Shown one piece after another: positions 21,867 through 23,364 of a stretch of 64,000 bases of DNA. The notes beneath the pieces are model-generated. The model was not told the DNA's origin. It saw only the letters and a list, made by a program, of their open reading frames with translations, and did not search any database. The translations under genes and the position numbers were made by a program. The stretch spans positions 30,504,001-30,568,000 of the forward strand of contig OX597817.1 in the NCBI GenBank assembly GCA_951406725.2, given 5' to 3'. Position 1 is the stretch's first letter. Every line of letters begins with the position of its first letter. Source of the stretch: Octopus vulgaris. Lineage: Eukaryota.

Positions 21867-22077
21867 CATGTGAAATAGAAAGATGAATAATCTTGTAGTA
21901 GATTAATCAAAAGATTAACCGATACCTTAGTAGCAAAAATCACAGCAGTAAAACAGCACGGTTGGAGGTACAACCATATGGTGTTGCAACCGTGCGTTGG
22001 TGCGGATAATTGAAATTAGAACATTATTGGTGAATTGAAGAAATGGAGCTGAACGCAGATTGAACAGAAATCGTTTT

Positions 22078-22169
22078 ATTTCATTCTACACGTGTTTCGA
22101 AAGGCACAAATTACCAAAATCCGATGGAATAATGGGACCATATTGTGTCTTTCTCTTCAGGAAGAAAAT
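22078..22169 (-). ncRNA. Type I hammerhead ribozyme (mirror copy)
   Basis: Exact reverse complement of 22551-22642. Confidence 0.8.
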
Positions 22170-22550
22170 AGGAAATCCGTTGGAAAAACAAAAACAGAAC
22201 AGAGGCGGAGCAAAAACAAATCGAACTATGCTCCTAAGAGCCCATGGCGAAACTGTTTATCAGTGTATGTTGAGAACCGGTGGCTGAAGAATTCAACGGG
22301 TCAGGCATCGGTCAATCATGTGGGTGAGGGGGCGTAGATGTTCTTTGTGACCGAGAATAAAGTTCTCGGTCACAAAGAACATCTACGCCCCCTCACCCAC
22401 ATGATTGACCGATGCCTGACCCGTTGAATTCTTCAGCCACCGGTTCTCAACATACACTGATAAACAGTTTCGCCATGGGCTCTTAGGAGCATAGTTCGAT
22501 TTGTTTTTGCTCCGCCTCTGTTCTGTTTTTGTTTTTCCAACGGATTTCCT

Positions 22551-22642
22551 ATTTTCTTCCTGAAGAGAAAGACACAATATGGTCCCATTATTCCATCGGA
22601 TTTTGGTAATTTGTGCCTTTCGAAACACGTGTAGAATGAAAT
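22551..22642 (+). ncRNA. Type I hammerhead ribozyme
   Basis: attttcttc-CTGAAGA-Gaaagacacaa...ttgtgcctttC-GAAA-CACGTG-TA-gaatgaaat. Full core, G10.1-C11.1, long stem II, palindromic stem III ACACGTGT, GUA cleavage after 22633; stem I has 8 of 9 positions paired. Confidence 0.82.
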
Positions 22643-23364
22643 AAAACGATTTCTGTTCAATCTGCGTTCAGCTCCATTTCTTCAATTCACCAATAATGTT
22701 ATATATATATATATATATATATACATATATATATACATACATATGTGTATGTATGTATGTGTGTGTATGTGTGCATGTGTGTGTATACTAGCTCAGGTAT
22801 CTTTAGTCATACAGATAAGTTACATGCAAATCAAAAAGTGAAGGGAAAATCTATTATTTAATATTTGCAGGTTTTCTTACAAATTGCAAGATGTTTCATC
22901 TAAAGCAAAAAAAGAAAATAAAGCACAGAAAAGCTGATGATTCTACCTGCAGCTTTGCTGTTTTCTAGGTGAAGCATTTTGCAAATTATAAGTAAAATTT
23001 GAAATACAATTGAATATACATATGCATATATGCACATATGTGCATATACAATTATGCATGTATATATGGTTGCATATGCATGTATGCACAGTAAAAGATG
23101 GGTGACAAAGCAAAAGAATGTAAAAAAAGACTGAATGATAATTTCGAAAAGAATTATTTGCTTAGCACTCAAAGAAATGGAAGTAGTTAATTATGACATT
23201 TCAGAAAATCGGTGTAGAGTGGGAAAAGGAACGAAAGACAAGGGAAAAAATTAAAAGAGCAATCGAGGTGAAAATACCTATGTGATCTTGTGTCTCAATA
23301 CACACCCAAACTGTCACTCACGAATAAAATATGGTCTCTCTCTCTTTCTCACATGAACACACTC

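Follow-up and report, generated by a model that had tools for sequence, protein, structure and literature searches.

A palindromic insert in the Octopus vulgaris genome is a cut-short, head-to-head copy of a young Penelope-like retrotransposon

The palindrome at positions 21868–22700 of the stretch of Octopus vulgaris DNA analysed here (the window, 64,000 nt in length) is a real, cut-short head-to-head insertion of a young Penelope-like retrotransposon (PLE). The locus alone is ordinary PLE debris, and the palindromic layout of such insertions is already known: an inverted truncated copy with a one-sided tail is described for PLEs in the available text of Craig et al. (2021; PMC8557442), and hammerhead ribozyme (HHR) pairs on opposite strands, 100–700 bp apart, are described for truncated PLEs in that of Cervera and de la Pena (2014; PMC4209133). 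What is new lies at the level of the family, namely the statistics of the sites at which reverse transcription (RT) starts, the raised number of arms that begin at the predicted HHR cut, and the loss of a linker from the encoded protein. The copies have two fixed 3' ends, a tail end at u3622 (in coordinates of the unit) and a tailless end at u3453–3473, and the two are strictly paired. Searches of open-access text found no account of strict start-site pairing, of HHR-cut breakpoints or of this family; an octopus Hydra family or related counts could be contained in the supplements of PMC8557442 and PMC11167929.

The insert and its flanks are composed of the following parts.

21691..21866, no strand: left (TA)n target tract, from sequence repeats
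21868..22366, minus strand: tail-bearing arm, the 3' end of the PLE unit (about u3124–3622), 99.8% identical to other copies
21868..22019, minus strand: tail (u3471–3622), bounded by the two 3' ends and continuing into the ORF where units stand in tandem
21956..21995, minus strand: tail hairpin, with its 3' base at u3534
22078..22170, minus strand: type I hammerhead of the tail-bearing arm, the mirror of the plus-strand copy, with its predicted cut after 22087
22354..22366, no strand: junction, a natural AGAA/TTCT inverted microhomology of 4 nt around a 5-nt loop
22363..22700, plus strand: tailless inverted arm (u3133–3470), from arm comparison and genome matches
22550..22642, plus strand: type I hammerhead with the core CUGAAGA at 22560–22566 and a predicted cut after A22633 (u3403)
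22701..22744, no strand: right (TA)n target tract, from sequence repeats

Direct comparison shows 22020–22357 and 22363–22700 to be exact reverse complements of 338 nt around the 5-nt loop TAAAG (22358–22362), so that the exact arms and short loop of the original prediction stand base by base; an inverted-repeat listing puts the arms at 341 nt, with three additional pairs that are not all matched. The (TA)n expected on both sides is likewise present, at 21691–21866 and 22701–22744. A 153-bp unpaired end with its own hairpin had also been proposed, and the hairpin is there, but the length comes to 152 nt plus one shared base, and the stretch is no separate feature, being the PLE tail between the two 3' ends. 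An origin of the palindrome as a fold-back read artefact seems unlikely, because the flanks differ and hundreds of other loci have the same two ends with different centres. Among the contigs listed from four public DNA-type runs none bridges the junction, and loose ends lie at 22366. Elsewhere in the window, 27109–27602 and 27678–28133 are near-identical direct copies of about 450 nt with matching translations, and GC-richer elements with internal repeats occur at 31313–31599, 50873–51018 and 52301–52457, which we take to resemble octopus SINEs.

The insertion had been read as a recent one of a PLE pseudo-LTR (pLTR) with an inverted 5' copy in (TA)n, a reading borne out by copies at 99.8–100% identity; the accompanying idea of a distinct ORF-less element gave way to one truncated copy of an autonomous, ORF-bearing family. 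A search of the octopus genome returned 1,895 candidates, 40 of which were scored and found to be 99.8–100% identical, and other copies run further upstream, into a 3,622-bp unit that occurs in tandem. Among the copies examined the (TA)n target is kept. The palindrome is not, every centre among the two-armed copies of contig C1 being different. The unit has its HHR cut after u3403, its tailless end near u3470 and its tail end at u3622, and it carries an ORF of 895 aa with an RT bearing YRDD and a GIY-YIG-like domain, intact in eight fetched loci, some of them overlapping. Exact-pattern counts in the genome gave 966 tail/(TA) junctions, 267 tailless junctions (one form only), 35 ORF starts and 1,609 arms that read through the HHR cut. 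The family is young and autonomous, with about a thousand insertions. When 30 loci were chosen by internal sequence, (TA)n followed the tail in 29, and the remaining one was a tandem junction. Contigs of four runs guessed to be RNA cover the unit, but their depth climbs toward the 3' end in the manner expected from DNA copy number, and this coverage was not taken as expression.

Several arrangements were observed besides. At least three full units with intact ORFs stand in tandem at L207–L208 (G000:C1:119.51–119.53 Mb). Within shared (TA)n tracts, older subfamilies, 74–85% alike, adjoin or surround young copies, some of them head to head (L011, L021, L043, L204, L215, L237 and L311). A separate non-autonomous palindromic element was ruled out, as other copies continue into the ORF-bearing unit and the centres vary. 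The non-LTR retrozymes (bioRxiv 10.64898/2026.07.22.740005) are similarly ORF-less and PLE-derived with a type I HHR, but in the available text they are tandem units with an identity of their own, whereas the octopus insert is a one-off truncation product; membership was rejected, since the arms are head to head and other copies extend into the ORF-bearing unit.

The ORF, which has a homolog in Argonauta, had no significant match in Pfam or PDB sequence searches, while the eight top Foldseek matches of its model are all TERTs (best E 2e-9). Across 51 relatives its C-terminal domain keeps Y, Y-x-G, R, H, E and N unchanged; the five top-ranking fold matches of the endonuclease (EN) model are GIY-YIG nucleases at non-significant E values of 0.2–0.35, Pfam GIY-YIG matches one of 14 aligned members, which is not this family's protein, and nothing significant was returned for the domain by Pfam and PDB sequence searches. 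A single-ORF telomerase-like RT, a GIY-YIG-like C-terminus, a pLTR with partial tandems and a one-sided tail characterize the family as a C-terminal EN+ PLE, and inverted 5'-truncated copies together with a type I hammerhead in the pLTR are further PLE traits. An earlier Naiad/SECIS reading was dropped once the ORF had been found, as Naiad has an N-terminal EN and DKA, whereas here the EN is C-terminal and the motif is DKT.

Within this group, the family shares with the Hydra clade, as set out in the available text (Craig et al., 2021; PMC8557442), the single ORF, RW(K/L), DKT, a C-terminal GIY-YIG-like EN without CCHH, CxxC and CxH, a type I HHR in the pLTR, (TA)n targets, partial tandems and an inverted 5'-truncated copy with a one-sided tail. 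The motifs are present as RIRWL (the RWK motif, whose K position also varies among relatives) and SDKT (DKT replacing DKG), and the EN has CNLC..E for CxxC and N..CPH for CxH. The family differs from that clade in its tail of about 150 nt against 30–40, its 3.6-kb unit, its 895-aa ORF with two predicted disordered inserts, its HHR, whose long stem II bears a 31-nt loop, and the CxCX5C linker, which the Hydra clade has and the octopus family lacks: a single Cys is left in all eight intact-ORF loci, while a CxC-x3-10-C linker is present in 64 of 65 relatives that reach the EN, in its strict form in 45. The source family is therefore best described as a Hydra-like C-terminal EN+ PLE and not as a strict Hydra member, because the motifs and (TA)n targets match the published description (PMC8557442) and CxCX5C is missing. 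The linker has been proposed to direct insertion; (TA)n targeting persists here despite its loss.

A type I hammerhead had been assigned to each strand, and the core, read by eye and mirrored on the minus strand, agrees. The plus-strand ribozyme has the CUGAAGA core, a long stem II closed by G-C, GAAA and GUA before the cut, and its stem III carries the palindromic ACACGUGU (also by eye). An Rfam scan gave no hammerhead match, only sub-threshold miRNA hairpins. The minimum free energy fold of the monomer retains stem II but places the core in another hairpin (z -0.35), and in the predicted dimer fold the two ACACGUGU palindromes pair with each other. In the older subfamilies, 5 of 20 hammerhead pairs are changed on both sides with the core kept, pairing holds in 88.9% of cells against 37–50% with a slid register, and the stem III palindrome is replaced by a different palindrome. 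Such compensatory change supports the predicted fold; since the covariation set consists of ten related rows, one of them chimeric, from older copies found beside young ones, it serves as support and not as a probability. The hammerhead would be the PLE's own pLTR ribozyme, doubled as a by-product of the inverted insertion. With the HHR pairs of truncated PLEs in the available text of PMC4209133 it shares the dual opposite-strand spacing, a short palindromic helix III suited to dimers and a long helix II; unlike those pairs, it is traced to an active source family with insertion statistics.

Arm starts around the predicted cut were counted by first matching base in ten single-base scans, with read-through rows and internal deletions dropped, and u3403 and u3405 were added after the result for u3404 had been seen. 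Among subfamily-matched arms (exact to u3456), 10, 7 and 6 start at u3403, u3404 and u3405, with 3 at the neighbouring u3402 and 4 at u3406, and 2, 2, 3, 2 and 3 at the controls u3385, u3396, u3418, u3424 and u3434. This is a roughly threefold excess at the cut ±1 (23 over three positions vs 12 over five; p = 0.0007 by rows and 0.004 by loci), which persists when two stem-I joins are taken out (p = 0.002 by rows and 0.01 by loci). The excess is modest when all subfamilies are counted, with 17, 11 and 15 at u3403–3405 and 8, 9, 4 and 6 at u3385, u3396, u3402 and u3406, the first two of these lying inside the ribozyme. Of the 11 inverted joins at u3404, 8 bring the two arms to within 4 nt of each other and 10 overlap by at most 1 nt. 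Natural micro-palindromes also gather junctions, at 8 of 26 loci in one scan and about half of 15 in another (by eye).

HHR cleavage is the somewhat favoured cause of this breakpoint peak, which may possibly be a genomic trace of predicted cleavage in vivo. RT stalling or microhomology at the ribozyme structure, with no cutting of templates in vivo, offers a possible if rather doubtful account. Counts are raised at upstream positions inside the HHR too, and stem-I joins inflate the count at the cut of a second family; moreover, in the available text on the anole PLE PAc (Poseidon, Anolis carolinensis; Frangieh et al., 2024; PMC11167929), insertion in vitro is reported to proceed normally with HHR mutants, and none of the RNA-seq reads end at the cut, where the octopus family has its excess of arm starts. 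The peak, however, is centred on the scissile bond and not on the 3' base of stem I, the joins are mostly blunt or filled, and the core, stems and stem III palindrome are kept through compensatory change. Under cleavage, the ribozyme would likely act on only a minor fraction of templates, probably when dimerized or assisted by protein. Some 43 arm starts fall at the cut ±1 vs 1,609 arms reading through it, and the share of arms affected by cleavage would be at most a few percent. Low or protein-assisted activity is consistent with what the available text of PMC4209133 and PMC11167929 describes.

The second family, of Hydra type (L359–L404, e.g. L389:1570–6265), has its CxCX5C linker intact and a small type I HHR of its own, and it served as a test of the cut-site excess with the prediction fixed in advance. 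The prediction was borne out in part only. Breaks at the cut were found in 18 of 30 examined rows (30 of 45 rows), compared with 6 of 30 at -8 (30 of 60 rows), 1 of 16 at +3 and no more than 8 at -3; seven of the 18 join via a 6-nt stem I homology and so need no cleavage. Among its symmetric palindromes, 13 of 25 are centred on the stem III loop and one of 25 has both arms at the cut (by eye). The replication is partial. Read-through copies of this family often carry small indels at the cut, clear in 6 of 12 rows (by eye; L420–L449, L480–L495), and the same 4 nt across the bond are missing in 4 of 16 rows of the +3 scan (by eye); these indels could stem from RT jumping across cut RNA. The EN query for the family gave 18,598 first-look candidates, not all of them belonging to it. 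Its 3' region of about 3.4 kb consists largely of (TA)/(TG)/(TATG) repeats common to the copies, and the family may spread microsatellites. Another hammerhead-like motif, whose stem III is palindromic, was seen in a different repeat (L395:8138–9102, L404:9160–9961), which has part of the second family's 3' region in common.

The two-armed architecture was surveyed at all 79 tail ends listed for contig C1. An adjacent inverted arm is present at 63, and it ends at u3453–3473, about 150 nt short of the tail end, in 59 of these; none of the 63 ends at the tail end, and four end elsewhere or at the fetch edge. The two-armed copies are 98–100% alike to the unit, and every centre differs. In the 59 pairs the tailless arm extends more than 12 nt further 5' in 34 and the tail arm in 17, while 8 are near-symmetric against 2.2 expected by permutation (p = 0.0007); the arms overlap in 45 pairs and do not in 14, and their lengths are uncorrelated (rho 0.17, p = 0.2). 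Short tail arms start at u3527–3544, near the 3' base of the tail hairpin (u3534), in 6 of 14 cases. Approached from the tailless side, 30 loci had a tail partner within 1.5 kb in 18 cases and a tailless partner in none, with five lacking a partner and seven assigned to neither class. Within 43 overlapping pairs, one of 343 comparisons at polymorphic sites is discordant, where shuffling gives 29%; a further 30 differences occur over 10,414 bp.

The insert is a 5'-truncated, two-armed copy of the young PLE that probably arose from two RT events primed on one RNA from both ends of one cut target. The PLE protein, which probably dimerizes as in the model of the anole PLE (PMC11167929, available text), would cut both strands in (TA)n; one target 3'-OH would start RT at the tail site and the other about 150 nt upstream, and both cDNAs would grow toward the RNA 5' end before microhomology or end joining linked them head to head. 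In the copy at 21868–22700 the two cDNAs would have come to a halt no more than 10 nt apart, at a natural hairpin of 4 bp. Twin priming on one RNA is favoured over simple fold-back by the strict pairing, the independence of the arm lengths and the shared haplotype, although common haplotypes would also be expected from a single source locus per cell or from arm-to-arm conversion. In LINE-1 twin priming, a second internal priming on one RNA likewise yields an inverted 5' part joined by microhomology, but there the position of the second priming is variable and most arm pairs lack overlap, whereas in the octopus family the second site is fixed and the arms usually overlap, giving palindromes. 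The anole PLE sets a precedent, with two internal RT start sites that bracket the tail, extension of both target strands, AT-rich targets, an HHR upstream of the start sites and a predicted dimer (Frangieh et al., 2024; PMC11167929, available text). Its start sites lie inside the ORF and those of the octopus family before it; they are also used equally on both strands in vitro, which speaks against twin priming with fixed sites and differs from the strict tail/tailless pairing seen here. Two tail-tail loci (L125, L138) among 30 ORF-start loci count against strict pairing as well.

It is unlikely that a single cDNA from the tail site snapped back and copied itself, with asymmetry produced by later central deletions and the copy at 21868–22700 left as an undeleted survivor. 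Perfect palindromes are unstable, a natural hairpin of 4 bp with a loop of 5 nt forms the junction, symmetric copies exceed expectation, many centres lie at natural micro-palindromes, and identical haplotypes of both arms fit such an event. The copy in the window is itself symmetric and centred on that hairpin, so for this one copy a snap-back at the centre is equally likely as two cDNAs meeting. Across the family, however, the tailless arm of 34 of the 59 pairs holds sequence missing from the tail arm, and a tailless arm longer than its partner cannot result from simple fold-back; 14 pairs lack overlap although the copies are 98–100% alike, several joins contain untemplated or TA filler between the arms, and the fixed tailless end is left unexplained.

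Priming by two RNA-protein complexes from the same active source locus, each using its own RNA at one target end, is improbable. It would accommodate the 45 overlapping pairs, for which one RNA would need strand displacement or sequential copying, and the uncorrelated arm lengths; a free choice of site, however, predicts many tail-tail and tailless-tailless pairs, against 0 of 63 and 0 of 18 seen, and loci in which both arms start at the HHR cut suit a single common RNA end.

RNA of the whole insert is predicted to fold as one hairpin (-690 kcal/mol), and read-through RNA may form a 338-bp duplex that buries both HHRs, a side effect on ADAR editing or siRNA being physically plausible. No host gene was indicated by Pfam matches among 80 of the 212 filtered ORFs of the window. 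That the palindrome is kept as, or acts as, an RNA switch between self-cleavage and dsRNA for ADAR or siRNA is very improbable, for although the predicted duplex sequesters both HHRs, the copy is of the same young age as its siblings, about one two-armed copy in seven is symmetric and the centres are not conserved; any such effect would be a side effect.

Read tentatively, the insertions of this family could form a fossil record in which the two target strands each use an RT start site of their own on a single RNA, the HHR cuts a minority of germ-line templates and leaves paired arms at the scissile bond, and (TA)n targeting proceeds without a zinc-finger linker. The tandem and inverted insertion of PLEs, the role of their hammerheads and their microsatellite targeting are treated as open questions in the available text of PMC8557442 and PMC11167929. 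With its intact ORFs and roughly a thousand insertions, this very young family brings all three within reach of testing. From the strict start-site pairing an asymmetric complex is to be expected, from the breakpoint peak RNA 5' ends at a single base, and the missing CxCX5C linker amounts to a natural knockout. For the octopus itself, the family implies hundreds of young inverted repeats in the genome, a possible bulk source of dsRNA.
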